A stretch of 64,000 nt of DNA from an uncultured Bacteroidales bacterium (GCA_964431135.1 CAYSIN010000001.1:5096-69095); one strand, 5' to 3'. Counted from the first letter of the stretch, positions 12,347 through 35,048 are shown. Notes: a model not told the origin generated them from the sequence alone. A program made the numbers and translations.

Positions 12347-15300
12347 ATGAAAAAATATTTATTTTCTATTGTACTGATATTCAGTATGTTAAATTTTTAT
12401 GGACAAGCATACCTTATCAGTTCAGGAGGAACTGTTTCTACCTGTTCGGGTTATTTTTACGATAGCGGTGGTAGCGGAGGTACATACCAGAACGATGAAA
12501 ACTATACCATGACGATATGCTCAAGTAATGGTGGGCACATTGTTGCTACATTTACTGCTTTCAATACAGAAGCAAGTTATGATTATTTATATATATATAA
12601 TGGACCGAATACAGGCAGTCCATTAATAGGTTCTTATAACGGCACTACATCACCTGGCACTATTACTTCCAGTGGAACCTGTCTTACTTTTGTGTTTACT
12701 TCTGATGTTAGTGTAATGTATGATGGATGGGCTGCAACATTATCTTGTACCACACCAGTTGCTCCAAATACACAGGATTGTGCAGGGGCAATACCATTAT
12801 GCTTTTCTACTTATTCCACTACTGCTTCTTATTCTGGTCAGGGAAATTTCCCAACTGAAATTCCAACACATTTACCATATTCAGACGACATGTGTCCCGG
12901 CAATTGTTTACTGGCAGGAGAACTTAACGATGTTTGGTACACATTTACCGTTCAAACTTCTGGAACACTTACATTTCAGATTACTCCCAATAGTAGCGGT
13001 GATGATTATGATTGGGCGGTATATAATTTAACCAATGCCGAATGTGCAGATATTTATTCGAACCCAAGTTTGCAGGTAAGTTGTAATTTTTGCGGTGTAC
13101 CAGGAGCGACAGGTCCTACCGGTGGAGGTTCTTCTTCGTGTATGTATGGCGACCCGGCTTATTGTACAACTTACAATTCTGCTATTAGTGTAACTGCTGG
13201 ACAAACATACGTGGTTAATGTAAGTAATTTCAGTTCAACACAAAATGGATATAGTATTACTTTTGGAGGTACGGCTCAAGTAGTGGACAATACAGGTCCA
13301 TATTTGTACAATGTTGTTCAATCGCCGGCATGTGGACAAAATCAGGTTATCATTCGTTTCAGTGAAAATGTGTCATGCACTACGGTGCAGGCATCCGATT
13401 TTACTATCAGCGGTCCAGGTGGACCCTATACCGTTACATCTGTGAGTGGTGCTATTTGTGCTGCTGGGGGCAGTTACGAAAGAGATTATGTATTAACAGT
13501 AAGCCCTGCTTTTGTACAAGGAGGAACCTATACTATTAGTTTAGTAAGTAATTCTGTTTCTGATATATGTTCACATCCAACCGGTGGGCAAAATTTGACC
13601 TTCAGCGTTACCGGTGTAACTGCTTCGGCTTCGGTAGTAAGTAATGTTTCATGTTATGGTGGAAATAATGGCTCTGCAACGGCAAGCGGTTCAGGCGGCA
13701 CTTCTCCATATTCTTACTCATGGAGCAATGGTTCTACGTTGGCAAATCCAACCGGTTTGGCTGCAGGAACTTATACCGTTACGGTAAGAGATGCCAATGG
13801 CGTTTGTAATGCAACGGCACAAATCACAATAACACAACCTACAATACTTGCCGCTACCATTAGTTCTTCACCTGTTTTATGTAATGGTGGAAGTACCGGT
13901 TCTGCAAGCGTAAGTCCTTCTGGCGGAACGTCTCCTTATTCATATTTATGGAGTAACAGTTCCACCGCATCTTCTATTTCCGGTTTATCACAAGGAACTT
14001 ATTCTGTTACAATAACTGATAATAAGGGTTGCACTTTGGTAAAAAGTACCACAGTATCTCAACCAACAGCGTTATCTGTTTCAACATCTCAGACAAATGT
14101 GAGTTGCAATGGAGGGAATAACGGCAGTGCAACTGTTTCGGTAAGTGGAGGCACTCCCTTATATTCATACACATGGAGTAACGGTCAATCAACAGCAACA
14201 GCATCAGGTTTAACGTCGGGCACATACACCGTTACAATTCGTGATGCCAATAGTTGTTCAACAACGCGTACTTTCACTATTACACAGCCCGCTACTTTGA
14301 CTTCTTCCATTGCCTCGCAAACAAATGTTTCCTGTTTTGGTGGCTCAACAGGCTCTGCAACAGTAACACAAAGCGGTGGCACTTCTCCTTATAATTATAC
14401 ATGGTCCAATAGTCAAACCACACAAACTGCTACAGGATTAACAGCCGGTACTTATACTGTTACTGTTAGAGATGCCAATAATTGTACTTCTATTTCGTTG
14501 GTAACAATCTCGCAACCAACTGCGGTGAGTGTTGGCATTTCGGGTTCAAATGTAACCTGTAACGGTAGCAGTACAGGAAGCGCTACTGCAAATCCTACTG
14601 GTGGAACGCCAACCTATACCTATTTATGGTCCAACAGTCAAACATCGCAAACCATTTCGGGACTTGCTGCCGGTACTTATACGGTTACAGTCCATGATAT
14701 CAATAATTGTTCGGCTGTAAACAGCATAACCATAACACAACCATCAACATTAACTTCTTCCATTTCATCACAAACAAATGTAAGTTGTAACGGTGGCAAT
14801 AATGGAACGGCAACCGTAACAGGAAGTGGTGGTACACCTTCTTATACTTACACCTGGTCTAATAGTCAAACATCACAAACAGCCACAGGATTGTCTTCGG
14901 GAACTTACTATGTTACTGTAAAGGACACTCATAATTGTACTTCGGTATCGTCTGTTACCATTACGCAACCCGCAGCACTGTCCGTAAGCATGACAAAGAC
15001 TAATGTTGCTTGTAATGGTGGAAGTACAGGCAGTGCAACAGCAACACCAACAGGCGGAACACCGGGCTATTCTTATCAATGGACTGGTGGACAAACAACA
15101 CAAACTATTTCAGGATTGTCAGCAGGAACTTATTATGTTACGGTGAGAGATGCCAACAATTGTTCACAAGTAAATTCTATTTCCATAACACAGCCAACTG
15201 CTGTAAGTGCCAGCATTTCATCTTCCACTAATGTAAGTTGTAATGGCGGTAATAATGGAACGGCAACAGTAAATGCAACAGGTGGTACACCGTCCTATAC

Positions 15301-18300: not shown

Positions 18301-21300
18301 TGCAGGGACTTATACTGTAACGGTAACTGATGATAATGGCTGTACAAAGGCTTCCGTTGTAAATATTACTGAACCTACTGCCATGACGGTTAATCCAACC
18401 GTTGCGGATGCTACTTGTGGCAATTCAAATGGAACAGCAAGCGTTACAGTTAGCGGCGGAGTTAATCCTTATTCTTATCACTGGTCAACGGGCGCAACTA
18501 CCGCATCTATTTCAGGTATTCCCGCAGGAAATTATGGCATTACTGTGAGCGATGCCAATAGTTGCAGTACCATATCTACTGTTTCCATTAATAATACAGG
18601 TGCACCTACCATTACGGTAGATAATGTAACACCTGTTGTTTGCTTTGGTGGCAGTAGTGGTTCCATATCCATTTCTGTTACAGGCGGAAGTCCAAGTTAT
18701 ACTTACAGTTGGTCTAATGGCGCAGATAGCACTTATTTGACTGGACTTACAGCAAACAATTACTCCGTCACAGTAACCGACAGTATAGGATGTCAGGCAA
18801 CGCAAAATATTACGATAACTCAACCAACGGCCATCAATGCTTCTATTATATCCGTACTGCCTCCATCATGCTATGGTTATTCTAATGGTTCTGCTTCGGC
18901 AGTAGCATCAGGTGGAACACCTTCTTATTTTTATTCGTGGTCAAATGGTGCCAATACGGCTAATGTTAATAATTTATCAGCAGGAAACTACACCGTAACT
19001 GTTACCGATTCACATGGTTGTACGACAACCGCTTCTACCAGTGTTTCTCAACCAGCAGGTATGTCTGCCATGTTGGTTTCTCAAACGAATGTTTCCTGTC
19101 ATGGAGGTAACGATGGTGCTGCTACCATTTCCGTTTCGGGTGGTACATCACCTTATACCTATTCATGGAATAATGGTTCTACATCAGCGTCTATTAGCAA
19201 TTTGATAGCAGGCAGTTATACGGTTACCATTACGGATAATAATATGTGTACGATTTCTTCCGGTGCTTCTATTATTGAACCACAAGCCATCAACATTAAT
19301 GTACCTATTTTAAATAATGTTACCTGTAATGGTTTAAGTAATGGTGCGGCATCTGTTAATGTTACAGGTGGAACCTTGCCTTATGGATATCAGTGGTCAA
19401 ACGGTTCAACTATAAATAGTATTACCAATGTGCCTGCTGGTACTTATGATTTAACTGTAACCGATGGACATTTATGTACATCAACTACCCAAATTACCAT
19501 AACAGAACCATCATCTATAATGTCCACTGTTACGCAAACAGCATCGATTAGTTGCTTTGGCGGTAATAATGGTGCAGCAACGGTCAGTGCATCAGGTGGA
19601 ATAAACCCTTATGGTTACCACTGGTCAACCAATCAAAGTACGCCAACCATTTCCAATTTAAGTGCAGGAACCTATTTCATTACGGTTAACGATTTGAACG
19701 GTTGTACCAAAGTGGACAGTATTGTTATCGTTCAGCCCACTGAAATCGTATTATCCTTTGCCGATGATTCGGTACTTTGTTATGGTGCAGTCAATGGAAA
19801 TATTGATTTGACTGTTAACGGTGGTACACCTTCTTATACATATCTTTGGAGCAATAATCAATTAAGTGAAGATATAACAGGTTTGGCGGCAGGCACTTAT
19901 ACTGTTACGGTTCACGATGCTAATCATTGTCCTATGATATCTTCTACAACTATTTATGAACCTCCAGTTTTGACCAATACCTTCAACATGATAAATTCAC
20001 ATTGCAATCTGTCAGATGGAAGTTTGCAAACCAGCGTTTCAGGCGGTGTTGGTCCTTATACTTATTTATGGGATGCACAAGCCAATGGACAAACAACATC
20101 TACTGCCATTAATTTAAGTGCTGGCACTTATTCTGTTTCGGTACACGATAGTCATGGCTGCCTGTCTGTATTTACAGGCAGTGTGTCGGATATTAATGCA
20201 CCACAACTTTCATTTAATATTGTGCAATTACCTAATTGTAATGGCGATTCTACCGGTAAAGTTTATTCAACGGTGCAAGGTGGTACTAATCCTGTTTCAC
20301 TATTATGGTCAAATGGAGTTACCGCTGATTCTATTGTGAATGTACCTGCTGGTATTTATTATTTAACGGCAACCGATGGTGCAGGTTGTATTACAATTGA
20401 TTCTGTTACAGTTACGCAACCCAATGTGTTGGCATTTAATATTGATGATGTTGTTTCACCAAGTTGTTTTGGACTTACCAATGGTTCTATTCATCTGCAT
20501 GCTGAAGGAGGTACTTTACCATATACTTATACATGGCAGGATGACCAGGGAACATCTCTTGGCAACAATTCATCCATAACAAATGTTGGCGTTGGCAATT
20601 ATTTTGTTACTGTAGTCGATTCGCATGGTTGTAGCACAATGTTAAATCTTAGTTTATCGCAGCCATCCTTATTAGTTGCAGATACGATAAGTCATATCTC
20701 TCCACTGTGTGCCAACAGCAATGATGGAATGGCTAATGTACAGGTTTCTGGTGGTACTACTCCTTATACTTATATTTGGAATGATGCTTTGCATACGCAA
20801 AATGATACATTAAGTAATGTAGATGGGAATCATTTCTATTATGTAACTGTAACTGATGCCAATGGCTGTACCATTATTGATTCAGTCTATATTACTGCAC
20901 CTGCTCCAGTCAATGCTATTGCTTCAGGATTTTCAGCCAATTGTAATTCACAAAATGGCTGGGCATACGTTCAGGCAAGTGGTGGAACATTACCTTATAC
21001 CTATTTATGGTCCACAGGTGCAAATACTGATACGGTACAAGGTTTATCCAGCGGAAATTATCATGTAACTGTTTACGACAGTCATGCATGCTCTGCAATT
21101 CAAACGGTTCAAATTACCAATCTGCCGGCTGGCAATATTGTAGTTGATTCTATTCAGGATGTTTCATGTTATGGTGAATCATCAGGCAATATTAGTATAA
21201 GCGTGAATGGTGGCACAGCACCTTATTCATATTTATGGAGTAATGGGAGTACTTCATCCTCTTTATCAGGTGTGGTTGCCGGACAATACTCTGTAACCGT

Positions 21301-22303
21301 TACCGATGTTAACCATTGTACAGACGATACTGTTTTGCAAATCACACAACCTCCGATATTGCTTGTGGATGCTGCTGTTCAAAATATTACATGTAATGGA
21401 TTGCAAAATGGCAGTATTGTATTGACCGTAAATGGCGGTGTAAGTCCTTTCAGTTATATATGGAATACAGGTTTTTTAACACCTTCCATTAACAATTTGA
21501 CAGCAGGAACTTATACGGTTACGATTACCGATTCTCATCATTGCACGGTCATTTATCAGCATAACATTACAGAACCTGCACCGTTGCAGGTAAATACTTC
21601 AGGTACAAATCCGTTGTGCTATAATGGCAACGATGGTGCTATACATGCTACTCTCATAGGCGGAACACCACCGTATTCGTATGCATGGTCAACGGGAGAG
21701 ACGACTCAAGACATTCAAGGATTGACGGCAGGTTCTTATCAGGTTACCATAACCGACAGCAATCTCTGTGTTGTTACAGCCGTAGCGATTATTGCCAATC
21801 CTCTACCCATGCAAACCACGGCAACACAAAGTCAAGACCCTGTCAACAATTTAGGGAATGTGCAATTAACTACTATTGGTGGCACCCTGCCTTATTCCTA
21901 TTCATGGTCTAATGGTGCACAATCAAGCAACGTTAGCGATTTGGTTGCCGGTACTTACTATGTAACCATTTCGGATGCCAATAACTGCATGATGATTGAC
22001 ACCTTTATTGTTGACATACAACTCGTTATTCCATCAGTTATAACACCTAATGAAGATGGGAAAAATGATGCATTTGAAATATTAGGTATTGGCGGATATA
22101 ACCAAGTTGATATTGAAATATACAATCGCTGGGGCGATTTATTGTTTAGTTATTCCGGTTCTGGTATGGACTATACCGATGTTACGAAACAATGGGATGG
22201 CAAATTCAACGGAAAAAAATTACCCATGGGACCTTACTTGTATGTTATTAAAATAAGTGATATTAAAGACCCTATTACAGGTACCATTACCATAAAATAT
22301 TAA
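12347..22303 (+). CDS. Giant SprB-repeat cell-surface adhesin-like protein with T9SS type-B (gliding-motility-associated) C-terminal domain
   Basis: 3318 aa with a signal peptide. CUB-like N-terminal domain (YFYDSGGSGGTYQNDENY...YLYIYNG...DGWAATLSC). 37 consecutive ~76-aa SprB repeats (C.GG.NGSA....GGT.PY.Y.WSNG.T......L.AGTY.VTV.D...C). C-terminus IPSVITPNEDGKNDAFEI...IYNRWGDLLF...WDGKFNGKKLPMGPYLYVIK matches the type-B sorting domain pattern. Confidence 0.92.
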   Translation: MKKYLFSIVLIFSMLNFYGQAYLISSGGTVSTCSGYFYDSGGSGGTYQNDENYTMTICSSNGGHIVATFTAFNTEASYDYLYIYNGPNTGSPLIGSYNGTTSPGTITSSGTCLTFVFTSDVSVMYDGWAATLSCTTPVAPNTQDCAGAIPLCFSTYSTTASYSGQGNFPTEIPTHLPYSDDMCPGNCLLAGELNDVWYTFTVQTSGTLTFQITPNSSGDDYDWAVYNLTNAECADIYSNPSLQVSCNFCGVPGATGPTGGGSSSCMYGDPAYCTTYNSAISVTAGQTYVVNVSNFSSTQNGYSITFGGTAQVVDNTGPYLYNVVQSPACGQNQVIIRFSENVSCTTVQASDFTISGPGGPYTVTSVSGAICAAGGSYERDYVLTVSPAFVQGGTYTISLVSNSVSDICSHPTGGQNLTFSVTGVTASASVVSNVSCYGGNNGSATASGSGGTSPYSYSWSNGSTLANPTGLAAGTYTVTVRDANGVCNATAQITITQPTILAATISSSPVLCNGGSTGSASVSPSGGTSPYSYLWSNSSTASSISGLSQGTYSVTITDNKGCTLVKSTTVSQPTALSVSTSQTNVSCNGGNNGSATVSVSGGTPLYSYTWSNGQSTATASGLTSGTYTVTIRDANSCSTTRTFTITQPATLTSSIASQTNVSCFGGSTGSATVTQSGGTSPYNYTWSNSQTTQTATGLTAGTYTVTVRDANNCTSISLVTISQPTAVSVGISGSNVTCNGSSTGSATANPTGGTPTYTYLWSNSQTSQTISGLAAGTYTVTVHDINNCSAVNSITITQPSTLTSSISSQTNVSCNGGNNGTATVTGSGGTPSYTYTWSNSQTSQTATGLSSGTYYVTVKDTHNCTSVSSVTITQPAALSVSMTKTNVACNGGSTGSATATPTGGTPGYSYQWTGGQTTQTISGLSAGTYYVTVRDANNCSQVNSISITQPTAVSASISSSTNVSCNGGNNGTATVNATGGTPSYTYNWSNSQTTATATSLAAGTYNVTVYDANNCTSTTSVSITQPAVLNATLSSTNTSCYGGSNGSATATPTGGTGPYTYLWVPGGQTGSTATNLSAGTYNVTITDIKGCTKTGSVTVSQPASLTLTMSKTDATCGNSNGSASVSVSGGTPSYSYLWSNSATTISITNVPAGTYSVTVTDSHSCTNVNNVAVNNSGAPVVTVNSVTNVTCNGGSTGGASISASGGTPSYSYHWSNGATTTSISNVAAGTYSITVTDALTCIGTASVTITQPSAVVATITSNISPLCNGASNGSATVSASGGTPGYNYQWSNGQTTVTAINLAAGTYSVTVKDTHNCTTTTSVTVTQPTVVTSSITSSSNVSCNGGANGSATASGSGGTPGYTYGWSSGASSATASGLSAGTYYVTVKDVNNCSSISSVTISQPAALTSTFNTTNVNCNGGSNGSLTVNPTGGTSPYTYSWSNSQTTQTINGLIAGTYSVTITDSHSCTMVNSATVTQPTTLTSSITAQTNVSCNGGNNGSATVTATGGTTNYSYLWSNSATTSSITNVTAGTYSVTVTDAHLCTNTSSVTITQPSVITATTSGTSVLCNGGNTGTASVAASGGTPGYTYLWSTTATTSSISGLAAGTYSVTIRDANNCSKIATYTVTQPAVLTATISSSTQVSCYGGNNGAATVSVSGGTTAYSYLWSSGQTTAMVNGLVAGTYTVTVRDANNCSTTANVTINQPTQLISTMGIPTNVSCNGGNNGTVTVTASGGSPTYSYLWSNGQTAATASNLTANSYSVTITDSHSCTSTASVTITQPAVLTSSISASNQVTCFGTATGSATVTQSGGTSPYSYLWSNSQTTQTATGLTAGNYTVTITDNKGCTTTSSVTITQPSALSASINSSTNVLCNGGNNGSASVSVTGGTPAYVYSWTTGQSSSSITGLTAGNYTVTVTDNNSCTSIANVTITQPTVISITMNSVNVSCHGGNNGSATASVSGGTPAYTYIWLPGGAVTSSINGLSAGTYTVTVTDDNGCTKASVVNITEPTAMTVNPTVADATCGNSNGTASVTVSGGVNPYSYHWSTGATTASISGIPAGNYGITVSDANSCSTISTVSINNTGAPTITVDNVTPVVCFGGSSGSISISVTGGSPSYTYSWSNGADSTYLTGLTANNYSVTVTDSIGCQATQNITITQPTAINASIISVLPPSCYGYSNGSASAVASGGTPSYFYSWSNGANTANVNNLSAGNYTVTVTDSHGCTTTASTSVSQPAGMSAMLVSQTNVSCHGGNDGAATISVSGGTSPYTYSWNNGSTSASISNLIAGSYTVTITDNNMCTISSGASIIEPQAININVPILNNVTCNGLSNGAASVNVTGGTLPYGYQWSNGSTINSITNVPAGTYDLTVTDGHLCTSTTQITITEPSSIMSTVTQTASISCFGGNNGAATVSASGGINPYGYHWSTNQSTPTISNLSAGTYFITVNDLNGCTKVDSIVIVQPTEIVLSFADDSVLCYGAVNGNIDLTVNGGTPSYTYLWSNNQLSEDITGLAAGTYTVTVHDANHCPMISSTTIYEPPVLTNTFNMINSHCNLSDGSLQTSVSGGVGPYTYLWDAQANGQTTSTAINLSAGTYSVSVHDSHGCLSVFTGSVSDINAPQLSFNIVQLPNCNGDSTGKVYSTVQGGTNPVSLLWSNGVTADSIVNVPAGIYYLTATDGAGCITIDSVTVTQPNVLAFNIDDVVSPSCFGLTNGSIHLHAEGGTLPYTYTWQDDQGTSLGNNSSITNVGVGNYFVTVVDSHGCSTMLNLSLSQPSLLVADTISHISPLCANSNDGMANVQVSGGTTPYTYIWNDALHTQNDTLSNVDGNHFYYVTVTDANGCTIIDSVYITAPAPVNAIASGFSANCNSQNGWAYVQASGGTLPYTYLWSTGANTDTVQGLSSGNYHVTVYDSHACSAIQTVQITNLPAGNIVVDSIQDVSCYGESSGNISISVNGGTAPYSYLWSNGSTSSSLSGVVAGQYSVTVTDVNHCTDDTVLQITQPPILLVDAAVQNITCNGLQNGSIVLTVNGGVSPFSYIWNTGFLTPSINNLTAGTYTVTITDSHHCTVIYQHNITEPAPLQVNTSGTNPLCYNGNDGAIHATLIGGTPPYSYAWSTGETTQDIQGLTAGSYQVTITDSNLCVVTAVAIIANPLPMQTTATQSQDPVNNLGNVQLTTIGGTLPYSYSWSNGAQSSNVSDLVAGTYYVTISDANNCMMIDTFIVDIQLVIPSVITPNEDGKNDAFEILGIGGYNQVDIEIYNRWGDLLFSYSGSGMDYTDVTKQWDGKFNGKKLPMGPYLYVIKISDIKDPITGTITIKY
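13620..22020 (+). repeat. Tandem array of 37 SprB-repeat coding units (~225-230 bp each)
   Basis: Counted from the protein by the recurrent PY.Y.W ... AGTY.VTV.D..C signature. Units are diverged at synonymous sites, so this is not a recent amplification. Confidence 0.9.
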
Positions 22304-22315
22304 TTAGTTTTAAAA

Positions 22316-22346
22316 AAGGCTATTCGGTTTGAATAGCCTTTTTTAT
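22316..22346 (+). terminator. Rho-independent terminator after the adhesin gene
   Basis: AAGGCTATTC (22316-22325), loop GGTTT, GAATAGCCTT (22331-22340), then TTTT. It begins 13 nt after the stop codon. Confidence 0.7.
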
Positions 22347-22390: not shown

Positions 22391-23584
22391 ATGATTTTTA
22401 TTGAGATAATATTTTGGATTTGTGTTGTGGCTATTTTTCATACCTATTTATTATATCCTTTTATACTTAAAATATTTTTTATACTCAGAAAAAAATCGTT
22501 ATGTAACAAAGATACTAAATATGCCGAATTGCCTGTCAATATTTTGATGGCAGCCTATAACGAAGAAAAAGTAATAGAAGAAAAAATAAACAGTATTTTT
22601 CAAAGCCATTATCCATCCCATTTAATAGAAGTCTGGGTTGGTTCTGATAATTCTTCGGATAGAACGAATGAAATTTTGGGGCAGTTATCGCAAAAATATA
22701 CGAACCTGCATACTGTTTTTTTTAAACAACGAAATGGAAAAATAAATATCATCAATCATTTAGTATCAAAGGCAACCGCAGATACGCTTATCATTACAGA
22801 TGCCAACGTAATATTTGACAAAGATACGATTCAGGAGTTAGTCAATTCCATTAATGAAGACAACGTTGGATTGGTGGACACCAATATGTTGCATAGCGGA
22901 ATTAGAGCCGATGGTATTTCAAAACAGGAAAATTTATATATCAGCACTGAGGTTAAAATCAAATATTATGAAAGTGTTTTGTGGGGAACCATGATGGGAC
23001 CCTTTGGTGGCTGCTATGCTGTAAAAAAGAATTTATTTAAGCCTGTGCCTTCTCATTTTTTAGTAGATGATTTTTATATCAACATGCAAGTATTGACGCA
23101 AGGTTATAAAGCCATTAGCAATTTAAAGGCTTATGTTTATGAAGATGTATCTAACAATTTAATGGATGAATATCATCGTAAGGTAAGAATTGCTACAGGC
23201 GATTTTCAGAATTTATTTTATTTTAAATCGGTATTCAAAAAAATTTGTTCACCGGTCAGTTTTTGTTTTTTTTCGCATAAAGTATTGCGATGGTTTACAC
23301 CTTTCTTTTTTGTAATTGCTTTTATCGCATTAGGTATTCTTTTCCTATTGGGCAAAAAAATCTATGGGTATTTATGGCTTTTGGCAGTTGCCGTTATTTT
23401 TATCGTATTATTGGAACGATTATTATCGGCAATGAGAATAAACATGGGGATACTTCGTCTGTTGACACATTTCTTATATATGAACATAGCATTGATGTCA
23501 GGTTTTTTTAAGTTTTTGTCGGGAGTAAAATCAAGTATTTGGGAACCAACACCGCGTCATCAGGGAGAAAATAAAGTTTATTAG
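22391..23584 (+). CDS. Integral-membrane glycosyltransferase family 2 (possible processive polysaccharide synthase)
   Basis: 397 aa. N-terminal TM, GT2 core (ILMAAYNEEKVI, VGSDNSSDRT, ITDANV), a C-terminal ...HKVLRWF... motif weakly reminiscent of Q(R/Q)xRW, followed by 3-4 TM helices. Confidence 0.75.
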   Translation: MIFIEIIFWICVVAIFHTYLLYPFILKIFFILRKKSLCNKDTKYAELPVNILMAAYNEEKVIEEKINSIFQSHYPSHLIEVWVGSDNSSDRTNEILGQLSQKYTNLHTVFFKQRNGKINIINHLVSKATADTLIITDANVIFDKDTIQELVNSINEDNVGLVDTNMLHSGIRADGISKQENLYISTEVKIKYYESVLWGTMMGPFGGCYAVKKNLFKPVPSHFLVDDFYINMQVLTQGYKAISNLKAYVYEDVSNNLMDEYHRKVRIATGDFQNLFYFKSVFKKICSPVSFCFFSHKVLRWFTPFFFVIAFIALGILFLLGKKIYGYLWLLAVAVIFIVLLERLLSAMRINMGILRLLTHFLYMNIALMSGFFKFLSGVKSSIWEPTPRHQGENKVY

Positions 23585-23622
23585 AACATTGTCAGTAAGA
23601 TATATTTGCTCCATTACCATTT

Positions 23623-25140
23623 TTAAAACTGAAAATATATAAAGGGCTGAATGTTGCTTGATTTTAACTGATATAAAATAAATATTACCATAATGGTATA
23701 ACATATTTTTACCCAAAGTGGGGTTTGAATAAAATAGCCTCTGCATTTTTCCTTAATGGATGAAGGTAGCCAGTGAATAATAAATGTTAGCCATATTAAT
23801 GCAAATACCAACGGCTCAGCCTTAATAAACAAGGGCAGTACTTCGCTATGGAATGAAGTAAATATTTGCGAAAACATTATAGAAGCGTCGTGCATGGAAT
23901 GTGCCCTAAAAAAAACCCACGTTAGACAAACAAAATTAAAGGTTATAAAAATACTTATTGCCTTGCCCCATGTTTTATTAATAGGAACATTGAAATGAAG
24001 TTGTTTAATCCATTTATGAAACATTAAGGCAATACCATGAATACCGCCCCAAATAACAAAACGTAAATTAGCACCATGCCATAATCCGCCTAGCAACATG
24101 GTAATCATAAGATTGATATACTGTCTTACTTTACCTTTGCGATTTCCACCCAGCGAGATATATAAATAATCGCGAAGCCATGAACTCAATGAAATATGCC
24201 ATCGTCGCCAAAAATCGGTAATATTGGTGGCTTTATAAGGGACATTAAAATTTATAGGCAAACGAAATCCAAGAAGCATCGCTACGCCAATGGCTATATC
24301 GGTATATCCACTAAAATCACAATATATTTGTGCTGCATACCCGTATATTGCCATCAAATTTTCTACACCCGAAAAAGCCGACGGGTTATCAAACACCCTA
24401 TCCACAAAATTGATAGAAATAAAATCGCTTACCACAATTTTTTTTAATAGTCCGTTTAATATTAACAATAAGGCATGCGAAAATTCCTGTCGAGAAAGAC
24501 TGTACTTTTGATATAACTGTGGAATAAATTCAGATGCCCGAACAATAGGACCAGCCACCAACTGTGGAAAAAAGGTTACATAAAAGGCAAAATCAATAAA
24601 ATTGTTTACCGGCTTGATTTTTTTTCTATATACATCAATGGTGTAACTCATGGACTGAAATGTGTAAAAGGAAATGCCCACAGGAAGGATAATAGTGCTC
24701 ACATCGAAGTGTGTGCCTGTCCATTGATTGCTCCACAATGCCAGTATGTTTTGAACCCTGTACGAAGTACCAAAAAGGGAATTTAATACATCCGTAAAAA
24801 AATAGGCATATTTGAAGTATGCCAGTACGCCAAGATTGGCGACAATGCTTATGGTAATCCAGCCTCTGCGTTTACGTGTGGACATATTTTTTCCCAACAT
24901 CAAGCCCACACAGTAATCAATAACAATGGTTAAAATAAGCAACGAGAAAAAATATCCACCCGACTTGTAATAAAAAAACAAAGAAGCAGCAAACAAATAG
25001 GCATTTCGCAACGTGTTTTTTTTGTAAATAAAAGAATATCCTATTAAAACGATGGCAAAAAATCCCCAAAAATAAAATTGACTGAACAGCAAAGGTTCAT
25101 TTTCGTGATAGGACAATATGTCGAGCAGCCATTCTTTCAT
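23623..25140 (-). CDS. MBOAT-family membrane O-acyltransferase (AlgI / PatA / DltB-like)
   Basis: 505 aa, polytopic. FWRRWHISLSSWLRDYLYISLGGNRKG and the conserved His region (LLGGLWHGAN) are typical of MBOAT. Confidence 0.88.
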   Translation of the reverse strand: MKEWLLDILSYHENEPLLFSQFYFWGFFAIVLIGYSFIYKKNTLRNAYLFAASLFFYYKSGGYFFSLLILTIVIDYCVGLMLGKNMSTRKRRGWITISIVANLGVLAYFKYAYFFTDVLNSLFGTSYRVQNILALWSNQWTGTHFDVSTIILPVGISFYTFQSMSYTIDVYRKKIKPVNNFIDFAFYVTFFPQLVAGPIVRASEFIPQLYQKYSLSRQEFSHALLLILNGLLKKIVVSDFISINFVDRVFDNPSAFSGVENLMAIYGYAAQIYCDFSGYTDIAIGVAMLLGFRLPINFNVPYKATNITDFWRRWHISLSSWLRDYLYISLGGNRKGKVRQYINLMITMLLGGLWHGANLRFVIWGGIHGIALMFHKWIKQLHFNVPINKTWGKAISIFITFNFVCLTWVFFRAHSMHDASIMFSQIFTSFHSEVLPLFIKAEPLVFALIWLTFIIHWLPSSIKEKCRGYFIQTPLWVKICYTIMVIFILYQLKSSNIQPFIYFQF

Positions 25141-26357
25141 GGTTTGGAAATATTCTCCATGTAAGTGTTTAAAAAAGCATCAAAAAACAAATCACCTTGC
25201 AGTTGATAACCATGGGTATTCAAATGCAGTTTATCTGGTGCAGACAGATGACCGAGATTCCATTGCGACATACCCGTTTCGCCTCCCGAAACAGTATAAA
25301 AATCCCATACGGCAGCATGATTTTTAGTAACTATGTCGAGCATGATATTTTTCATGCTGATTACATTTGAATTAATAATATTTTTTTTACGATAATGTGA
25401 CATGGGTGTGGTTAATAAGATGGCTATATTCGGATTGTCCTGTCGAATGGAGGCTAATAACGTTTGAAATGATTGACTTACACTTATGCTGTCAAAGGCA
25501 GGAAGGTAACAATCGTTGGTTCCAAGCGAAAGAATAACCCAATCGTAGTGCATATATTTTATAAAAGATGGAAGCAGTGTATTGTTAAACAAACTTGCTT
25601 TGGCACCATTAATGCCTAAGGTATGATACATGATGCCGGGGTCATCGTTGAACGGAATTATGCCATACAGTTTAAATTCAAACGTATCACTGAATACCTT
25701 AAAAAAAAGAGTGGTTGAATCGGTGTAACAATTATATATAAATTCATGACAAAAAATGCTGTCATTAAAAATGTGTATCCTGTGAATGGAAGGAATTACA
25801 GTATTTAAAGCAATATGTGACGAGTCGTCATTACAGAAAACAAGAAGTTTACTAAAACTTGCATTCGAGTCTTCTTGTGTTCGAACATGTATCATTATTT
25901 TTGATAAGCATGTATCATGCGAACATGCCGTCAATCCAAGCAAACTACTAAATTGCGATTTTTGTGCAACAGAGTATCCTGTCCAATTCCCATTGCAAAT
26001 AACCGAAACAGCATAAGGATTATTTGATTTTAATATGCCATAAGGGAAAGCAATGGCAGGGGGTTCGGTCAAGTTGAAAAATGTTTTGGCAAAATTTCTG
26101 CGAATTTCACACGTCAATAAATCTGCCTGAATATGCGAATCACCTACCTGTAAAATGCGTATTTGTTCATTTCCAGATATTTGCAATCTATTAAATTTTT
26201 TGAAAAGGCTGTCGTATCCAATACTTTCTTTGGCATTAATAAAAAAATTACTGTCGCATTTGAATAATAATAAATCGTTATCTTTATCTTGTCCGTTGGA
26301 AAAGTAATAAAAAAACAATGCTGTTACTAGGAGAATACCTGTGCTAAATTTATTCAT
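25137..26357 (-). CDS. SGNH/GDSL hydrolase-fold protein (acetyltransferase or esterase partner of the MBOAT)
   Basis: Block I ILQVGDSHIQAD, block III ILSLGTNDCY, block V APDKLH (DxxH). Start revised to ATG 26357 (MNKFSTGILLVTALFF... signal), overlapping the upstream stop by 8 nt (ATGAATAA). Its stop overlaps the MBOAT start (ATGA). Confidence 0.8.
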   Translation of the reverse strand: MNKFSTGILLVTALFFYYFSNGQDKDNDLLLFKCDSNFFINAKESIGYDSLFKKFNRLQISGNEQIRILQVGDSHIQADLLTCEIRRNFAKTFFNLTEPPAIAFPYGILKSNNPYAVSVICNGNWTGYSVAQKSQFSSLLGLTACSHDTCLSKIMIHVRTQEDSNASFSKLLVFCNDDSSHIALNTVIPSIHRIHIFNDSIFCHEFIYNCYTDSTTLFFKVFSDTFEFKLYGIIPFNDDPGIMYHTLGINGAKASLFNNTLLPSFIKYMHYDWVILSLGTNDCYLPAFDSISVSQSFQTLLASIRQDNPNIAILLTTPMSHYRKKNIINSNVISMKNIMLDIVTKNHAAVWDFYTVSGGETGMSQWNLGHLSAPDKLHLNTHGYQLQGDLFFDAFLNTYMENISKP

Positions 26358-27795
26358 GATGTTGTGTTGTTTGATATTGATTTTTTCGCTGACGATAGTG
26401 CACATATTCATTATAGATAGCATGGTACAATAATGTAGCCATATGTTTAGCCCCTACTGTTGTAAAATGAGTATAATCTTTAGCACCGAGTGGCGGTTTT
26501 GAATTAACCCATACGGGCATTGAATTTTCTCCACCCATGGCTTCGTACATATCCCAAAAGGCACAGCCGGCTTTAAACGCTGCTTTGCGTTGCTGGTCTC
26601 TTATTTTCATAATTTCTGGATAAGAAACATAACCGCTGTCGGTATGCATGGACATATCGGAAACACCTATAACAAGAATGCTCATGGTTGGTTTTATCTG
26701 TTTTAAAAAACGCAATTGTCTGTATAACCATTGCTCGTAATCATCGGTATGCGTATGAATATAAGGAATAACATTTACACCAAACTCATAAATAAGCAAG
26801 CGAACATTCATTTGTTTATAAATATTCGCCAGTTCAGAGGCTTGTAATAAAGTGAATTCGGTGCCTGAACTTCCACGCAATGGAATATTGTCAACCATGA
26901 TGCCCGTTTCGGTTTCAAAACTGATACCGTATATGTCGGGACTGTCTTTGCCAATAAAGTCCAACGTTAGCGAGTTTAAATTTGCAGGAACAGTAAACGT
27001 GGCTGTTTCTAAAGTAGAAGTAGAGGGCAGTGATTTCATACATAAAAATTTTTCACCACTATATAGTTGCAGCAATACGGGTTTACTTAAATTACCGTAC
27101 AGTAAGCGAACTTTAGAAAACGAAAAATTGGATGAAGCCGCATTTTTATTGGGTTTGAATGTAAGACTTGCTTCATAAACTGTTGAATCGTTTTGTGTGG
27201 AATCGGTTTTAATTGGTGTAAAACGTATATACTGCAACATGGGTCCATAAAAGCGTTTTTTTTGTTTAACCGTATTTCCGAATAATGTATAGCGAAACCA
27301 ATTACCCTGTGATTCTACATCAATACCTTGAACAATATTATTAACCTTAATGGGACAAATAAATCCCACACCCTTACCGCCCCATATACTTTGAAAATGA
27401 GAACGTAAATAACCTGTTATTCTGTCTCCCTCAATTTGGCTGTCGCCGTAATGCAACACATGGATAACCTGCGTATCGCCAAGGGCACTAAAAAAAGCAT
27501 CAAGTGCCGAATAGGTACAATCAGGAAACGCAATGGGAACATTTACAGGCAATATCGTATCTTTTAAAATGGAAACAATTTTGCTTGAAGCATATTCCTT
27601 AACAAGATGTTGCACAATGGCAACCGCTTTTTTGTTTTGCAACGATGGTGTTTTTTGGAATGAAAAATTTATGGTCGGTACTTTTATATCAAATGCCTGC
27701 GTATGGATAGAATGAGAAATGGGAAGAAAAGAAATGACAGCAAAGACAATAAAAATAATAAGTAAAACAAGAAGAGAATGTATGGGTTTAAACAT
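26350..27795 (-). CDS. SGNH/GDSL hydrolase-fold protein, membrane-anchored (second paralogous partner)
   Basis: 481 aa. N-terminal TM anchor, block I VLHYGDSQIEGD, GxN block (EFGVNV), block V AKDYTHFT (DxxH). Confidence 0.78.
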   Translation of the reverse strand: MFKPIHSLLVLLIIFIVFAVISFLPISHSIHTQAFDIKVPTINFSFQKTPSLQNKKAVAIVQHLVKEYASSKIVSILKDTILPVNVPIAFPDCTYSALDAFFSALGDTQVIHVLHYGDSQIEGDRITGYLRSHFQSIWGGKGVGFICPIKVNNIVQGIDVESQGNWFRYTLFGNTVKQKKRFYGPMLQYIRFTPIKTDSTQNDSTVYEASLTFKPNKNAASSNFSFSKVRLLYGNLSKPVLLQLYSGEKFLCMKSLPSTSTLETATFTVPANLNSLTLDFIGKDSPDIYGISFETETGIMVDNIPLRGSSGTEFTLLQASELANIYKQMNVRLLIYEFGVNVIPYIHTHTDDYEQWLYRQLRFLKQIKPTMSILVIGVSDMSMHTDSGYVSYPEIMKIRDQQRKAAFKAGCAFWDMYEAMGGENSMPVWVNSKPPLGAKDYTHFTTVGAKHMATLLYHAIYNEYVHYRQRKNQYQTTQHHE

Positions 27796-27798
27796 CTT

Positions 27799-29310
27799 TT
27801 AATGTTTTGGAATAATTAGCAACTGACCAATTTTTATAACGGTATTCTTATTAATATTATTAGCCTTGCACAATTCATTTATAGAAACATTATATTGCTG
27901 TGCAATAGAAAAAAGAGTGTCCCCTCTTTTCACGGTGTAGTTGGACGAATTTATTGCCCTCGTTTTTACAGTGGTATCTGGCATGGATATGTTTGTTTTT
28001 GCCGTAGTATCGGTGAGTTGTTTTGGAGGTTCCGGTTTCTTTTTCATTACAAAAATCACGATGTTTCGTCCTGCCTTAATGGTTTTTTTACCATAAATAT
28101 TGTTCCATGCTCTTAAATCGGACACTGTTACATGATATTTTCGGGCAATAGATTGTAATGTTTCGCCACTGCGTACTTTATGGTAAACAGCCACTTCTTC
28201 GTAATCGTTATATTTTGAACCCATAGCAGCATATAAACTTGGACGAATACTTTTAAACAAAAGTGTGTCCTTGTAACGATAAATGGAATCGCTCAGTGTA
28301 ATAAAACTGGATATGTTTTCTGATGGCAAGTATAGGGGCATGGGAAAATCGGACGATGCCGGTATAATGTCTTTTTTATAGGAAGGGTTTATCAGTTCGA
28401 GCATTTCGAGAGGAATACGCAGAACTTCAGCAACCTGACGCAAGTGCAACATTTTGTTGACATAAATAGTATCTACATGCAAAGGCAAATATGTTTGACG
28501 TGGAGTAATATTTAATTCCTTATAATAATGAAAGGTATAGGCTGCACCAATAAAGGCTGGCACGTAGCCACGCGTTTCTCGTGGTAAATAACGATACATT
28601 CCCCAATACGTTGTTTTTCCTGAACGTTTAATTGCCTTAACAATATTTCCAGGTCCACAATTATAGGCAGCAATGGCTAAATGCCAATCCTGAAAAACAT
28701 TGTATAAATCACGTAAATACCGTGCTGCAGCATCCGACGATTTTATAGGGTCCATTCGTTCATCTATAAACGAAGTCGTTTTAAGTCCATACAGTTTTGC
28801 CGTTGGTAAAATGAATTGCCATAATCCTACGGCTCGTGCTCTGCTGTATGCACGAGGGTTTAATGCCGATTCTATTACAGGCAAATATTTAAGTTCAAGC
28901 GGTAAACCATACCGGTCCAGCGCTTCTTCAAAATATGGAAAATAATATTGGCTGTTCCCCAGCATATACGAAACAAGATTTCGTCTTTTGCGTGCATAAA
29001 AATCGATATATTGATGAGTAATATGGTTAAAGGTCATTTCAATATAGGAATTCATACGGTTTAACTGAGTAATCAGCACATCATCCGGGAAAAAAGGGGC
29101 AGTAGTAGTATCATTGGCAAATAAATCTTTTTCAAGTTCTTTGTTAAAAGGAACATTTTGATTGTACCACAGATAAAGTAAACTGTCGGTATAGGATTCA
29201 AATTCTTTAAAATCAGATTCTCCAATATTTTCTATGGTGTCGTTTTGTGCCCAACTAAACACAGGTAACAATATCAACAATATCCATATCTTTCTAATTC
29301 TCATCGCCAT
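27799..29310 (-). CDS. Membrane-bound lytic murein transglycosylase D-like (SLT domain + 2 LysM)
   Basis: SLT motifs ESALNPRAYSRARAVGLWQF and AAYNCGPGN. Two C-terminal LysM repeats (YHKVRSGETLQSIARKY..., YTVKRGDTLFSIAQQY...). Confidence 0.88.
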   Translation of the reverse strand: MAMRIRKIWILLILLPVFSWAQNDTIENIGESDFKEFESYTDSLLYLWYNQNVPFNKELEKDLFANDTTTAPFFPDDVLITQLNRMNSYIEMTFNHITHQYIDFYARKRRNLVSYMLGNSQYYFPYFEEALDRYGLPLELKYLPVIESALNPRAYSRARAVGLWQFILPTAKLYGLKTTSFIDERMDPIKSSDAAARYLRDLYNVFQDWHLAIAAYNCGPGNIVKAIKRSGKTTYWGMYRYLPRETRGYVPAFIGAAYTFHYYKELNITPRQTYLPLHVDTIYVNKMLHLRQVAEVLRIPLEMLELINPSYKKDIIPASSDFPMPLYLPSENISSFITLSDSIYRYKDTLLFKSIRPSLYAAMGSKYNDYEEVAVYHKVRSGETLQSIARKYHVTVSDLRAWNNIYGKKTIKAGRNIVIFVMKKKPEPPKQLTDTTAKTNISMPDTTVKTRAINSSNYTVKRGDTLFSIAQQYNVSINELCKANNINKNTVIKIGQLLIIPKH

Positions 29311-29331
29311 AATTTTTGGCTGTAAGTTTAA

Positions 29332-29892
29332 TTATTTTTCTAACGTTAAACAAATTTTCAATCCAGTTGAAACCGCTGAGCGTTGTGCAAGCATAAACAG
29401 CGTAGGTTGTACCTTCATGCTCAGGTTATCGCTCACGTCAAAATCTATCAAATATGCATCTACAGTGGCATCAATAATGTTGAGCACATAAATACCTGCT
29501 GTTAAAATCAAACACAAATCTCTGTTTTTGCGGTAATGTTCCTTTTCGGCTTGAAGCCCTGTAAGAGTAAAGGACGTATTATACATGTAGTAATATCCGT
29601 TTGGGTCTGTGCTATAAAGTTCTTTATAGGCATTTTTAAAATTTTTATAGTATGAATTATTTTGAATGCTCATATATATCAATGTTCCCGATGCAACATA
29701 TATGATAGGTATTTTCCAGTATTTCTTATTGTAAGCCTGTCCCAAGCCTGGAAGTACTGCCGACATGGCTGTTGCCAATTTAGGCGAATGCTTAGGCTTC
29801 AAACTGTCTGCCTTTTCTTGTGATATACCATCCAATACACATAGAAAGCAGAAGAAAAATAGGATTATCTTATGAGCAAAATGCATATACAT
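29332..29892 (-). CDS. Small membrane protein, DUF5683-like
   Basis: Motif SAVLPGLGQAYNKKYWKIPIIY. Start moved from 29961 to ATG 29892 (or 29886), because a TACCTTTG box and a degenerate repeat lie inside the longer version. Confidence 0.55.
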   Translation of the reverse strand: MYMHFAHKIILFFFCFLCVLDGISQEKADSLKPKHSPKLATAMSAVLPGLGQAYNKKYWKIPIIYVASGTLIYMSIQNNSYYKNFKNAYKELYSTDPNGYYYMYNTSFTLTGLQAEKEHYRKNRDLCLILTAGIYVLNIIDATVDAYLIDFDVSDNLSMKVQPTLFMLAQRSAVSTGLKICLTLEK

Positions 29893-29912
29893 GCCTCTCT
29901 TCAATAAAAACA

Positions 29913-29920
29913 CAAAGGTA
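29913..29920 (-). promoter_or_regulatory. Candidate -7 box (TACCTTTG) heading the DUF5683-MltD-SGNH-SGNH-MBOAT unit
   Basis: Reverse complement TACCTTTG, 20 nt upstream of ATG 29892. Confidence 0.4.
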
Positions 29921-30218: not shown

Positions 30219-30226
30219 TACCTTTG
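30219..30226 (+). promoter_or_regulatory. Candidate -7 box (TACCTTTG) for dxs
   Basis: 16 nt upstream of ATG 30243. Confidence 0.45.
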
Positions 30227-32496: not shown

Positions 32497-33600
32497 CTAT
32501 TTTTTTTTATCCTGAGGAATAAAAAGATTCATTTTACAAAGTGAAATGCTGTCAAAATACAAGTTAAGACTGCCTTTTTTAAACGAAACCTGTTCCAATT
32601 TTACATGGCAACGTTGTTCATGAATATAAAGGCTTACCAATCCTTGTTTTGCTTCGATAAGATTTTCTTCCTCTTCATATAAGGTAATTAATTCTTCTGG
32701 CGATGGAATGGTGAGATTATCTTCTATAAAAAATATCTTTAATAGTTGATTGGAAGGTTCAATAGAGGTCGTATAAAAACTTTCTCGCTGCAGATAAGGT
32801 AAAAATATTTTACCATAAACATATTGACCAATGCCAACCTGTTTAAATATATAAAGTGTATCGTTTTGATAAAAGGCTTTTTCATTATAAGCAGCAGGAG
32901 CGGTTTCGCACGATTGAATTAAATTATTTGCCTGTTCGTGTATCAGTTTCTCGTGAATAGCAACGAGTGAACGTTGAGAGGCAGTATCTATTACGCCCGC
33001 AGTCGTTATGGTTTTGACAGGGGAGTGTTTAAATTTCTTTCTGTTTTTGAATGCCGTATGCAAGGCATAAAGATTAACTCCAATGCCAAAGTTGGGCAAA
33101 ATATACCAGTCTTTGTTATAACAGGGATGCGTACTTTTATTAAAAATCAACATGCCAGGGTCTATGGAAACTCCCAGTTCGACATTAAACAATTCTTCCC
33201 GTATCTCCAGTCCTAAAAGAAAGGCTGTACCATATACGGTTGAATGATAAGAATCAGTGCCGATATCGGGATGATAATAATTATTAAGCCATCCGGTGTA
33301 TATGCCACTGTATAATTGCCAACTTCCCTGTTTGCGAAAGTAATAATATCGTAAACATGCACCCGTATTATATGATGCATCCACATCATGGTCGTAAATA
33401 TATTGTGACCCCTGATATCCGCCATCCAGGGCTATACTGAAATGATTCCTTCGATATTCAACATTAACGCCCCAACCCCCGTAAACAATACCCTGCCCAA
33501 TTTTTACATTAACATAACGGTTATATAAAAATTGAGCCTCGCTCTTCGTTATCATTCCGAAAAACAATACTATAAAAATTTGTATTATCTTTTTTTTCAT
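32497..33600 (-). CDS. Secreted protein of unknown function (Tyr/Gly-rich beta-barrel-like N-half plus unknown C-half)
   Basis: 367 aa with a signal peptide (MKKKIIQIFIVLFFGMITKSEA). Alternating aromatic/Gly strands in residues ~25-190. Its start overlaps the kinase stop (ATGA). Confidence 0.6.
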   Translation of the reverse strand: MKKKIIQIFIVLFFGMITKSEAQFLYNRYVNVKIGQGIVYGGWGVNVEYRRNHFSIALDGGYQGSQYIYDHDVDASYNTGACLRYYYFRKQGSWQLYSGIYTGWLNNYYHPDIGTDSYHSTVYGTAFLLGLEIREELFNVELGVSIDPGMLIFNKSTHPCYNKDWYILPNFGIGVNLYALHTAFKNRKKFKHSPVKTITTAGVIDTASQRSLVAIHEKLIHEQANNLIQSCETAPAAYNEKAFYQNDTLYIFKQVGIGQYVYGKIFLPYLQRESFYTTSIEPSNQLLKIFFIEDNLTIPSPEELITLYEEEENLIEAKQGLVSLYIHEQRCHVKLEQVSFKKGSLNLYFDSISLCKMNLFIPQDKKK

Positions 33601-35048
33601 GCAGGCAATAAATAATGTTTGACAGGAATATCTATTCTTAAAGAAATACCTTTACTTAAACGTTCAAAAATAATACTTCCACCCAAACTTTTTATGCGAA
33701 TATTCATTAAAAATAAGCCTTGCTGAGTTGCATTTTCTTTTGGTACAAGAATGGCTTCATAATCAAAACCTTTGCCATCATCACGATAAGAAATTGTAAA
33801 ATAATTTTCTTTTTCTGTAATATGAATAACAACTTGTTGAGCATCGGCATGTTTTAAACTGTTATGTACAAGTTCGGTAACCGTTCGGTAAGCAATGTTT
33901 TCCAATACCGGGTTAAAACGTTCATGTAAAAGCAAAATAGTAAATTTTAATTCCGGTTTCTCTAATTTGGAAAAACGTTCCTGAAGTTTTAAAAAGGCTT
34001 TTTCCAAGCCGTATTCTGATAAAACATTGCTGGAAGATATATTGGACAACTGACGAATACACTGAATGGAATCTTCAATCAACATTCGCGATTCGTTGAT
34101 TAATTCATTTTTTTCCGACATTGTTTTGGTAGGATGTACAGCCATTTCCAAATATCTGTTTGCTGTTGTGAGTGTAGGTGCAACAACATCGTGCAAATGT
34201 TCGGAAATTCTTGTACGTTCTTTTTCTTCGGTAACAGTAGCAATAGTTAAAAATTCACGTTGAAGTTGTTTATAATTGGTTATATCTCTCATAGTGATGA
34301 CTGCATAATGCTGTTCATCGCTCTTAATTATTTTAGCATTGATTTGGCAGGTTCTATAAATGTTTTTTGCCTTATGGCATATATCTATTTCAAAATCGGT
34401 AATGTATTTTTCTTTAACAAGTTTGTGAAAGGCTATTTTTAAAAGATGACGATTCGTTTCTAAATTGAAAATGGTTTTTCCTATTATTTTCTCCGGTGAA
34501 ATCTGTAAAAGTGATTCTATGGCAGGGCTTATTTCAATAATACGAAAGCGAGAATCAAGTATAGCAAAAACATCTTGCATGTTTTCAAAAATCAAGCGAA
34601 ACTTTTTTTCGTTTTGAGCAATAATTTGTTGCTGAAGTTCAATTTGCATCTGATAGTTGAAGTTTATAATCGTCTTTTCTATCGAAGGTTTCAGATTGGC
34701 AAGAAAATTTGAATCCTTTATGAGGTAATCGCTAACACCCAACCTCAGAAAATTAATTGCCACTTCTTCACTTCCTTCACCCGTAATCACTATAAATGGA
34801 ATATTTTTTTTAGTTTGATGTACTCGTTTTACAAGTTCTATTCCGTTGATGTCGGGAAGTTCAAAGTCGATAATGACTAACAGCGAATCGGTGCTCTTCA
34901 AAATATAGGGCAGTGCATTATTTCCATTGATAAAATTTTCAACAAGAAACCCCATGCTGTCAATTTTTTGTTTCAGCAATTCGCTTAATGCAAAATCATC
35001 TTCTATAATAACAATGGTTTCTATATTTTTTTGATTATTTTTAGCCAT
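33597..35048 (-). CDS. Cytoplasmic hybrid sensor: receiver (REC) + PAS + HisKA_3/HATPase histidine kinase
   Basis: 483 aa with no TM segment. REC (IVIIEDDFALS...VIIDFELPDINGIEL...VITGEG). PAS-like middle. H-box ERTRISEHLHDVVAPTL (NarX/DegS-type HisKA_3). ATPase motifs HNSLKHA, DDGKGF, GLFLMNIRIKSLGG. Confidence 0.82.
   Translation of the reverse strand: MAKNNQKNIETIVIIEDDFALSELLKQKIDSMGFLVENFINGNNALPYILKSTDSLLVIIDFELPDINGIELVKRVHQTKKNIPFIVITGEGSEEVAINFLRLGVSDYLIKDSNFLANLKPSIEKTIINFNYQMQIELQQQIIAQNEKKFRLIFENMQDVFAILDSRFRIIEISPAIESLLQISPEKIIGKTIFNLETNRHLLKIAFHKLVKEKYITDFEIDICHKAKNIYRTCQINAKIIKSDEQHYAVITMRDITNYKQLQREFLTIATVTEEKERTRISEHLHDVVAPTLTTANRYLEMAVHPTKTMSEKNELINESRMLIEDSIQCIRQLSNISSSNVLSEYGLEKAFLKLQERFSKLEKPELKFTILLLHERFNPVLENIAYRTVTELVHNSLKHADAQQVVIHITEKENYFTISYRDDGKGFDYEAILVPKENATQQGLFLMNIRIKSLGGSIIFERLSKGISLRIDIPVKHYLLPA

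Follow-up and report, generated by a model that had tools for sequence, protein, structure and literature searches.

The window analysed here is a stretch of DNA of 64,000 nucleotides (nt) from an uncultured Bacteroidales bacterium (GCA_964431135.1, CAYSIN010000001.1:5096-69095). Its minus strand carries five close-packed genes, a candidate operon for the O-acetylation of peptidoglycan, which encode, in reading order, a DUF5683 protein, an MltD-like lytic transglycosylase, two SGNH proteins (SGNH1 and SGNH2), and an MBOAT protein. On the open reading frame (ORF) map, the gene for the DUF5683 protein of 186 amino acids (aa) lies at 29332..29892 (Pfam PF18935, E 1e-49), followed by the genes for the MltD-like protein of 503 aa (27799..29310; Pfam SLT, E 3e-28, and two LysM domains, E 4e-31), SGNH1 of 481 aa (26350..27795), SGNH2 of 406 aa (25137..26357), and the MBOAT protein of PatA type with 505 aa (23623..25140; Pfam MBOAT, E 4e-32). 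From DUF5683 to MBOAT, the genes are separated by 21 nt and 3 nt and then overlap by 8 nt and 4 nt. The ORF coordinates and Pfam assignments agree with the packing, spacings, and domain calls of an initial annotation of the window. The ATGs of the DUF5683 gene (29892) and the SGNH2 gene (26357) are internal to longer mechanical ORFs, and each yields a sensible signal sequence; the 8-nt overlap between SGNH1 and SGNH2 results from the internal ATG at 26357.

The five genes are preceded by a single TACCTTTG box, a Bacteroidota-type -7 promoter-like element found on the minus strand at 29913-29920, 21 nt 5' of the first ATG and as given in the initial annotation. The corresponding class of sequences, TAnnTTTG, occurs about as often in the window as expected (100 observed vs. 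102.7 expected), and the operon itself contains three further minus-strand matches. Since the class lacks enrichment, only the position of the box speaks for a promoter; its placement fits a promoter-like role but is statistically weightless by itself. Scans for sigma-70 promoters and terminators yielded nothing above chance that bears on the operon. The five genes are presumably transcribed as a single unit. A second exact TACCTTTG occurs on the plus strand at 30219-30226, 16 nt 5' of the ATG (30243) of the divergent dxs gene, and the 350-nt intergenic region between the operon and dxs contains a back-to-back pair of these promoter-like boxes.

The DUF5683 protein has a hydrophobic N-terminus and predicted membrane segments. 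A literature search on DUF5683 turned up no relevant description, and any role of the protein in the operon would be putative. The MltD-like protein starts with a signal peptide (...SWA/Q). Its SLT domain, in which VIESALN contains the catalytic Glu-Ser, is followed by two LysM domains at the C-terminus, an architecture that it shares with the family 1D lytic transglycosylase MltD of E. coli. It differs from this enzyme in scoring far below the equivalog cutoff of the NCBIfam MltD model (NF008050; E 1e-61, 208 bits vs. a cutoff of 508) and in the type of its signal, as the N-terminus MAMRIRKIWILLILLPVFSWAQ has no lipobox cysteine and hence no lipoprotein signal as in MltD, but is of the signal peptidase I type.

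SGNH1 and SGNH2 contain the intact GDS and DxxH motifs reported in the initial annotation, in SGNH1 at residues 117-119 (GDS) and 440-443 (DYTH) and in SGNH2 at residues 72-75 (GDSH) and 375-378 (DKLH). Active-site residues were assigned by alignment to Ape1 of Neisseria meningitidis, and the resulting catalytic and oxyanion sets, S119, G308, N341, D440, and H443 in SGNH1 and S74, G251, N281, D375, and H378 in SGNH2, are invariant in the respective family alignments. Pfam Lipase_GDSL_2 matches both proteins, SGNH1 only weakly and below the cutoff (E 0.004). In sequence searches of the entire PDB, SGNH1 matches only the N. meningitidis Ape1 (4K3U/4K40), and SGNH2 matches only Ape1 from N. meningitidis (4K3U/4K40) and Campylobacter jejuni (8GKD/8GLD). 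The family profile of SGNH2 recovers the N. meningitidis Ape1 over its full length with an E-value of 3.7e-45 and the C. jejuni Ape1 with 9e-35, compared to 1e-29 and 5e-9 for the SGNH1 profile. The AlphaFold2 models of SGNH1 and SGNH2 (predicted local distance difference test scores, pLDDT, of 82 and 88, respectively) both have an SGNH domain split by a beta-sandwich insert (CBM35-like, as in Ape1), which in SGNH2 comprises approximately residues 117-248 and is colinear there with SGNH1 and Ape1. Both Ape1 structures (4K3U and 8GKD/8GLD) ranked first in Foldseek searches with these models (template modelling (TM) scores 0.73-0.84, E 1e-18 to 1e-23; for 4K3U, E 4.5e-20 and TM 0.80 with SGNH1, and E 1.8e-23 and TM 0.84 with SGNH2), and the runners-up were CE2 esterases and SsfX3 (E ~1e-6 to 1e-7). 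The two proteins are also colinear paralogues of each other (hhalign E 3.7e-35, 20% identity; 21-22% identity in tblastn). Thus, as judged by sequence, profile, and predicted fold, both are homologues of the O-acetylpeptidoglycan esterases of the Ape1 type.

The initial annotation had mapped the pair onto a PatB transferase and an Ape1 esterase, which has to be revised, as the operon encodes two Ape1-fold paralogues and no PatB/DUF459-type protein. Neither SGNH1 nor SGNH2 matches the Pfam family of PatB (DUF459, PF04311) even at E-values up to 10, and the PatB structures 7TJB and 8TLB are missing from their sequence, profile, and Foldseek match lists. The profile comparison proposed in the initial annotation matched Ape1 and never PatB, AlgJ, or AlgX. 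Sequence, profile, and Foldseek searches, together with Pfam at E-values up to 10, led us to reject PatB, AlgJ, and AlgX as identities of either protein. The paralogues differ in their N-termini and conserved blocks. In SGNH2, a cleavable signal peptide (...FSNG/Q) is followed by the blocks GDSH, GINGA, and GTND, as in Ape1 (GTN(D/E)), whereas the blocks of SGNH1 (GDSQ, RGSSG, and GVNV) have diverged from Ape1. SGNH1 begins with a hydrophobic helix of 20 residues (residues 4-23), followed by a linker of ~90 aa up to approximately residue 108, and is the only one of the two with the layout known from PatB, a membrane anchor and ~100-residue linker before the SGNH domain. This likeness in anchor and linker is a resemblance and no evidence of homology.

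In the MBOAT protein, His315 (WRRWH) and His355 (GLWHG) align to the conserved histidines of DltB (6BUG). Its C-terminal hexapeptide FIYFQF (23626..23643, minus strand), which includes Tyr502, fits the FxYxxF acetyl-shuttle motif, and such an end is retained in 48 of 55 MBOAT ORFs of related loci. The FxYxxF tyrosine of PatA is auto-acetylated and then serves as donor for the SGNH partner (PMC12148441). An assignment as DltB was rejected on the grounds that the NCBIfam DltB model scores below its equivalog cutoff (E 9e-54, 183 bits vs. 375), that no Dlt genes are adjacent, and that the protein itself carries the Tyr motif, which in DltB systems resides on the separate DltX microprotein. The fusion of the motif to the MBOAT points to an enzyme of the PatA/AlgI/WssH type that uses acetyl-CoA, rather than to DltB, and auto-acetylation from acetyl-CoA is predicted by analogy.

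Relatives of SGNH1 are widespread, with at least 598 species genomes recovered in a pattern scan that considered one genome per species. We compared 80 related loci from Bacteroidales, Flavobacteriales, Saprospiraceae, Chitinophagales, and Cytophagales, in which neighbouring genes were counted by tblastn; the number of informative loci varies by gene. The order SGNH1-SGNH2-MBOAT on one strand is common to the window and most of these loci, with SGNH2 located 3' of SGNH1 in 58 of 72 informative loci and MBOAT in 47 of 58. MltD is encoded 5' of SGNH1, on the shared strand, in 54 of the 71 loci informative for it, 49 times within 600 nt, and the gap between the two genes has an approximate median of ~14 nt. 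For DUF5683, a position 5' of MltD was recorded in 28 of the 62 loci informative for it, and a hidden Markov model (HMM) search returned the same 28. Of the 51 loci that are fully flanked, 31 have MltD-SGNH1-SGNH2-MBOAT, either with DUF5683 and hence all five genes (n = 16) or without it (n = 15). The remaining loci contain SGNH1-SGNH2-MBOAT (n = 6), DUF5683-MltD-SGNH1-MBOAT (n = 5), only SGNH1-SGNH2 (n = 5), or other arrangements (n = 4; SGNH1 alone in two, SGNH1-MBOAT in one, and DUF5683-MltD-SGNH1 in one). The conservation of synteny across Bacteroidota, raised as a question in the initial annotation, is therefore borne out among the related loci.

The 5' end of the operon also has a conserved context. 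Among the 80 related loci, 27 (L001, L006, L014, L020, and 23 others) have ParA-ParB directly 5' of DUF5683-MltD, and according to the ORF maps DUF5683 is located 3' of ParB in all but one of the 28 loci that have it. This suggests a conserved Bacteroidales block of the composition ParA-ParB-DUF5683-MltD, followed by the genes of the O-acetylpeptidoglycan (OAP) cluster, and the pairing of MltD with DUF5683, usually 3' of ParA-ParB, further distinguishes the Bacteroidales MltD from the E. coli enzyme. No ParA or ParB is encoded in the window, where the divergent dxs occupies that position. The full five-gene arrangement also occurs in three metagenome-assembled genome (MAG) records labelled "uncultured Bacteroides sp." (L043, L051, and L072). 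None of the best 120 relatives of the L043 SGNH1 is named as a cultured Bacteroides species; the named ones are environmental MAGs of Bacteroidota, Bacteroidales, or "Bacteroides sp.". The genus label of these records is no evidence for gut Bacteroides.

The closest described counterpart is the ape1b-ape1c-patA cluster of Bacteroides thetaiotaomicron, Bacteroides fragilis, and Porphyromonas gingivalis (Weadge, Pfeffer & Clarke 2005, PMC1199599). It comes from the same phylum and has the same described gene order, two Ape1-family genes followed by MBOAT, with GDS and DxxH motifs present, so that SGNH1 and SGNH2 occupy the "Ape1b" and "Ape1c" positions, respectively. The same study determined base-labile O-acetate per muramic acid at 69% in B. 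fragilis and 27% in B. thetaiotaomicron, with Porphyromonas unmeasured. However, it mentions neither MltD nor DUF5683 upstream and names a cation-efflux gene for Bacteroides. In addition, Ape1c as described there lacks a segment of ~100 aa after motif I, whereas the SGNH2 of the window is predicted to keep its beta-sandwich, and both Ape1b and Ape1c were named esterases, leaving no transferase assigned. The initial annotation regarded the fusion of acetylation genes with MltD and DUF5683 into one transcription unit as undescribed. This holds only in part, since the order of the core genes has been known since 2005 (PMC1199599), but our literature search found no paper describing a linkage of MltD or DUF5683 to OAP genes. 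This linkage may thus be undescribed, yet it is commonplace throughout the phylum and not special to the window.

Like the operon, the PatA/PatB/Ape1 systems of Neisseria and Campylobacter combine an MBOAT, which has a catalytic His and ends in an FxYxxF acetyl-Tyr shuttle, with an Ape1 esterase fold into which a CBM35-like domain is inserted. In contrast to these systems, the window encodes a second, membrane-anchored Ape1-fold paralogue instead of a PatB/DUF459-type SGNH protein, and its lytic transglycosylase is part of the same operon, for which we found no report from the proteobacterial clusters. In Neisseria, Ape1 is functionally coupled to the lytic transglycosylase LtgA through a complex in which each enzyme stimulates the other (PMC7083599), a further point in favour of a link to peptidoglycan.

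The earlier proposal of an MBOAT-SGNH system for glycan O-acetylation is supported by these results, as is its preference for peptidoglycan. We infer, with strong support, that peptidoglycan is the substrate, because both SGNH proteins resemble Ape1, because the linkage to a LysM-bearing lytic transglycosylase is conserved, because some SGNH2 relatives contain an inserted LysM domain, and because the same gene order is found in Bacteroides and Porphyromonas, with O-acetate measured in two Bacteroides species. The LysM domain is located inside the beta-sandwich (alignment columns ~225-290) in approximately 25 SGNH2 relatives. Two of these, L081 (8001-9446) and L082 (8001-9419), are encoded between SGNH1 and MBOAT with ArgS upstream, and no MltD adjoins them.

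An exopolysaccharide or another envelope glycan as substrate, for example the product of the membrane glycosyltransferase (GT2) gene convergent to the operon, appears highly improbable. MBOAT/SGNH pairs elsewhere do acetylate alginate, cellulose, and secondary wall polysaccharides, and the GT2 at 22391..23584 on the plus strand (Pfam GT2, E 8e-22), which is separated from the operon by a 38-nt spacer and contains the expected LRW motif (VLRW), has a weak likeness to processive synthases (NCBIfam PgaC, E 5e-16, far below the cutoff). Yet tblastn and clustering recovered only partial, generic GT2-domain matches in the related loci (21-28% identity), scattered in position and on either strand, and we rejected the GT2 as part of the system. 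As it is no conserved partner of the operon, it loses the weight that the initial annotation had given it as a ground for an exopolysaccharide substrate. Likeness to AlgX, AlgJ, or WssI-type proteins is also absent, and peptidoglycan is favoured by the Ape1 fold as well as by the LysM insertions and the linkage to MltD.

Our preferred reading, to which we assign a probability of roughly 60%, is that the operon is the form that the OAP cluster takes in Bacteroidota, that an MltD-type enzyme and DUF5683 are transcribed together with it, and that SGNH1 acts as the transferase and SGNH2 as the esterase. Its directly supported part comprises the gene content, the domain and fold assignments, the catalytic motifs, and the conserved synteny. 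In the proposed mechanism, MBOAT would draw acetyl groups from cytoplasmic acetyl-CoA and, via His355/His315, acetylate its own Tyr502, placed in the periplasmic C-terminal FIYFQF tail. Ser119 of the membrane-anchored SGNH1 would accept the acetyl group and pass it on to the C6-OH of N-acetylmuramic acid (MurNAc) near the membrane, and the soluble SGNH2, the nearer Ape1 orthologue, would strip O-acetyl groups from sites at which the wall has to be cleaved. Such de-O-acetylation would license the co-expressed MltD-like enzyme. Lytic transglycosylases need a free C6-OH (PMC1199599) to form 1,6-anhydroMurNAc, and for this reason the esterase is expected to act where the lytic transglycosylase must cut. 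The linkage to MltD is in keeping with the established view of O-acetylation as a gate for lytic transglycosylases.

Within this reading, we infer with moderate support a transferase role for SGNH1 and an esterase role for SGNH2. The assignment is based on the closer relationship of SGNH2 to proven esterases in both profile and the GDSH/GINGA/GTND blocks, on the PatB-like anchor and linker of SGNH1 as opposed to the cleavable signal of SGNH2, and on 6 of the 51 fully flanked loci (seven such loci when all those listed are considered) that retain SGNH1 and MBOAT without SGNH2. The roles could also be swapped, with the soluble SGNH2 as the O-acetyltransferase fed by the MBOAT tail and the anchored SGNH1 as the esterase. 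Both proteins have complete catalytic sets, SGNH2 directly adjoins MBOAT with the 4-nt overlap, and the Leu that precedes its catalytic His (DKLH) is similar to the Ile/Val of PatB at this position; the LysM-bearing SGNH2 relatives would bind peptidoglycan in either role. We nevertheless consider such a swap unlikely, as the SGNH2 profile is nearer to the proven esterases (E 3.7e-45 and 9e-35 vs. 1e-29 and 5e-9 for SGNH1), its block I-III signatures are those of the esterases, the PatB-like anchoring is found in SGNH1 and not in SGNH2, and the six or seven loci mentioned above have SGNH1 and MBOAT but no SGNH2.

In the alginate system, AlgJ is anchored and AlgX is soluble with a carbohydrate-binding module. 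Like AlgI/AlgJ/AlgX, the operon combines an MBOAT with a periplasmic pair of SGNH-type proteins, of which one is anchored and the other is soluble and has such a module, and two SGNH genes precede MBOAT in most loci. An analogous relay would pass the acetyl group from MBOAT to SGNH1, then to SGNH2, and finally to peptidoglycan, making both SGNH proteins transferases and leaving the operon without an esterase. This is doubtful, and we rate it as quite improbable. SGNH1 and SGNH2 are nearest to true esterases and have no sequence or fold likeness to AlgJ or AlgX, SGNH2 is absent from the six or seven loci that keep SGNH1 and MBOAT, and O-acetylation of the wall next to a lytic transglycosylase would require a de-O-acetylase. 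The operon also lacks AlgF and alginate synthesis genes, and its neighbours are peptidoglycan enzymes instead. Thus, the alginate-type system, which the initial annotation had listed as the second match, finds no backing in sequence or fold.

Several observations weigh against the preferred reading. The mark proposed for SGNH transferases, a Ser or Asn in place of the Gly in block II (associated in PatB with a type I beta-turn oxyanion hole), is lacking from both proteins, with Gly308 of SGNH1 and Gly251 of SGNH2 invariant. Five loci (L021, L037, L039, L070, and L074) have SGNH1-SGNH2 without MBOAT or MltD within 10 kb, and because of these loci the SGNH1-SGNH2 pair can be uncoupled from the acetyl-translocase. 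They stem from three genomes that are of Cytophagales type or unassigned Bacteroidia, one Bacteroidales MAG, and one MAG labelled Luminiphilus. Moreover, the related loci were gathered with SGNH1 as the query, so that clusters of only SGNH2 and MBOAT would escape, and our view covers 64 kb of the genome, so a PatB or OatA gene may sit elsewhere. The hydrolase-typical block II Gly, the five loci without an adjacent MBOAT, and the 64 kb inspected would also be in line with both SGNH proteins being esterases and the transferase partner of MBOAT, a PatB/DUF459-type or other SGNH protein, being encoded at another site. This arrangement is very unlikely in our view, given that no third SGNH paralogue occurs within the 64-kb window, that the SGNH partner is always adjacent in characterised MBOAT systems, and that the tight linkage of SGNH1/SGNH2 with MBOAT throughout the phylum would be hard to explain if neither were the partner.

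Apart from the operon, the window encodes a protein of 3318 aa (12347-22303, plus strand) that has a CUB domain at its N-terminus, 35 SprB repeats, and a type IX secretion signal of the CHU_C family; directly 3' of its gene, a terminator-like hairpin with a 16-bp stem is located (22311-22345). A hybrid response-regulator/PAS/HisKA_3/HATPase protein is encoded at 33597-35048 on the minus strand, and its gene has a 4-nt overlap with a 367-aa ORF (32497-33600, minus strand), for which Pfam gives no match and whose N-terminus is signal-like.

Finally, the locus bears on how Bacteroidota O-acetylate their cell wall. A 2024 review assigns Pat-type enzymes to Pseudomonadota and Campylobacterota, not to Bacteroidota; the latter it names only as one of the lineages whose O-acetylation is of the OatA/OatB type, and for Bacteroides it cites a degree of O-acetylation of 56-66% (PMC11382707). 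Such heavy peptidoglycan O-acetylation in Bacteroides influences how the cells resist lysozyme and how muropeptides are released in the gut, and the window locus, together with the relatives from at least 598 species genomes, provides concrete candidate machinery for this modification in Bacteroidota. It is quite possible, though somewhat less likely than not, that Bacteroidota do without PatB and that a duplicated, anchored Ape1-fold protein, SGNH1, was recruited as the transferase that reads the acetyl-Tyr tail of MBOAT. If so, a transferase and its opposing esterase would have arisen from one esterase fold without the change in block II that is held to mark SGNH transferases, and the SGNH pair would share its expression with the lytic transglycosylase that it gates, with a possible coupling to chromosome segregation or division through the ParAB-DUF5683-MltD block. 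Which of the Ape1 paralogues replaces PatB bears on the generality of the published SGNH "transferase signature", and the widespread, tight linkage to MltD lends genomic support to the model of acetylation controlling lytic transglycosylases, which has so far been based on Neisseria.

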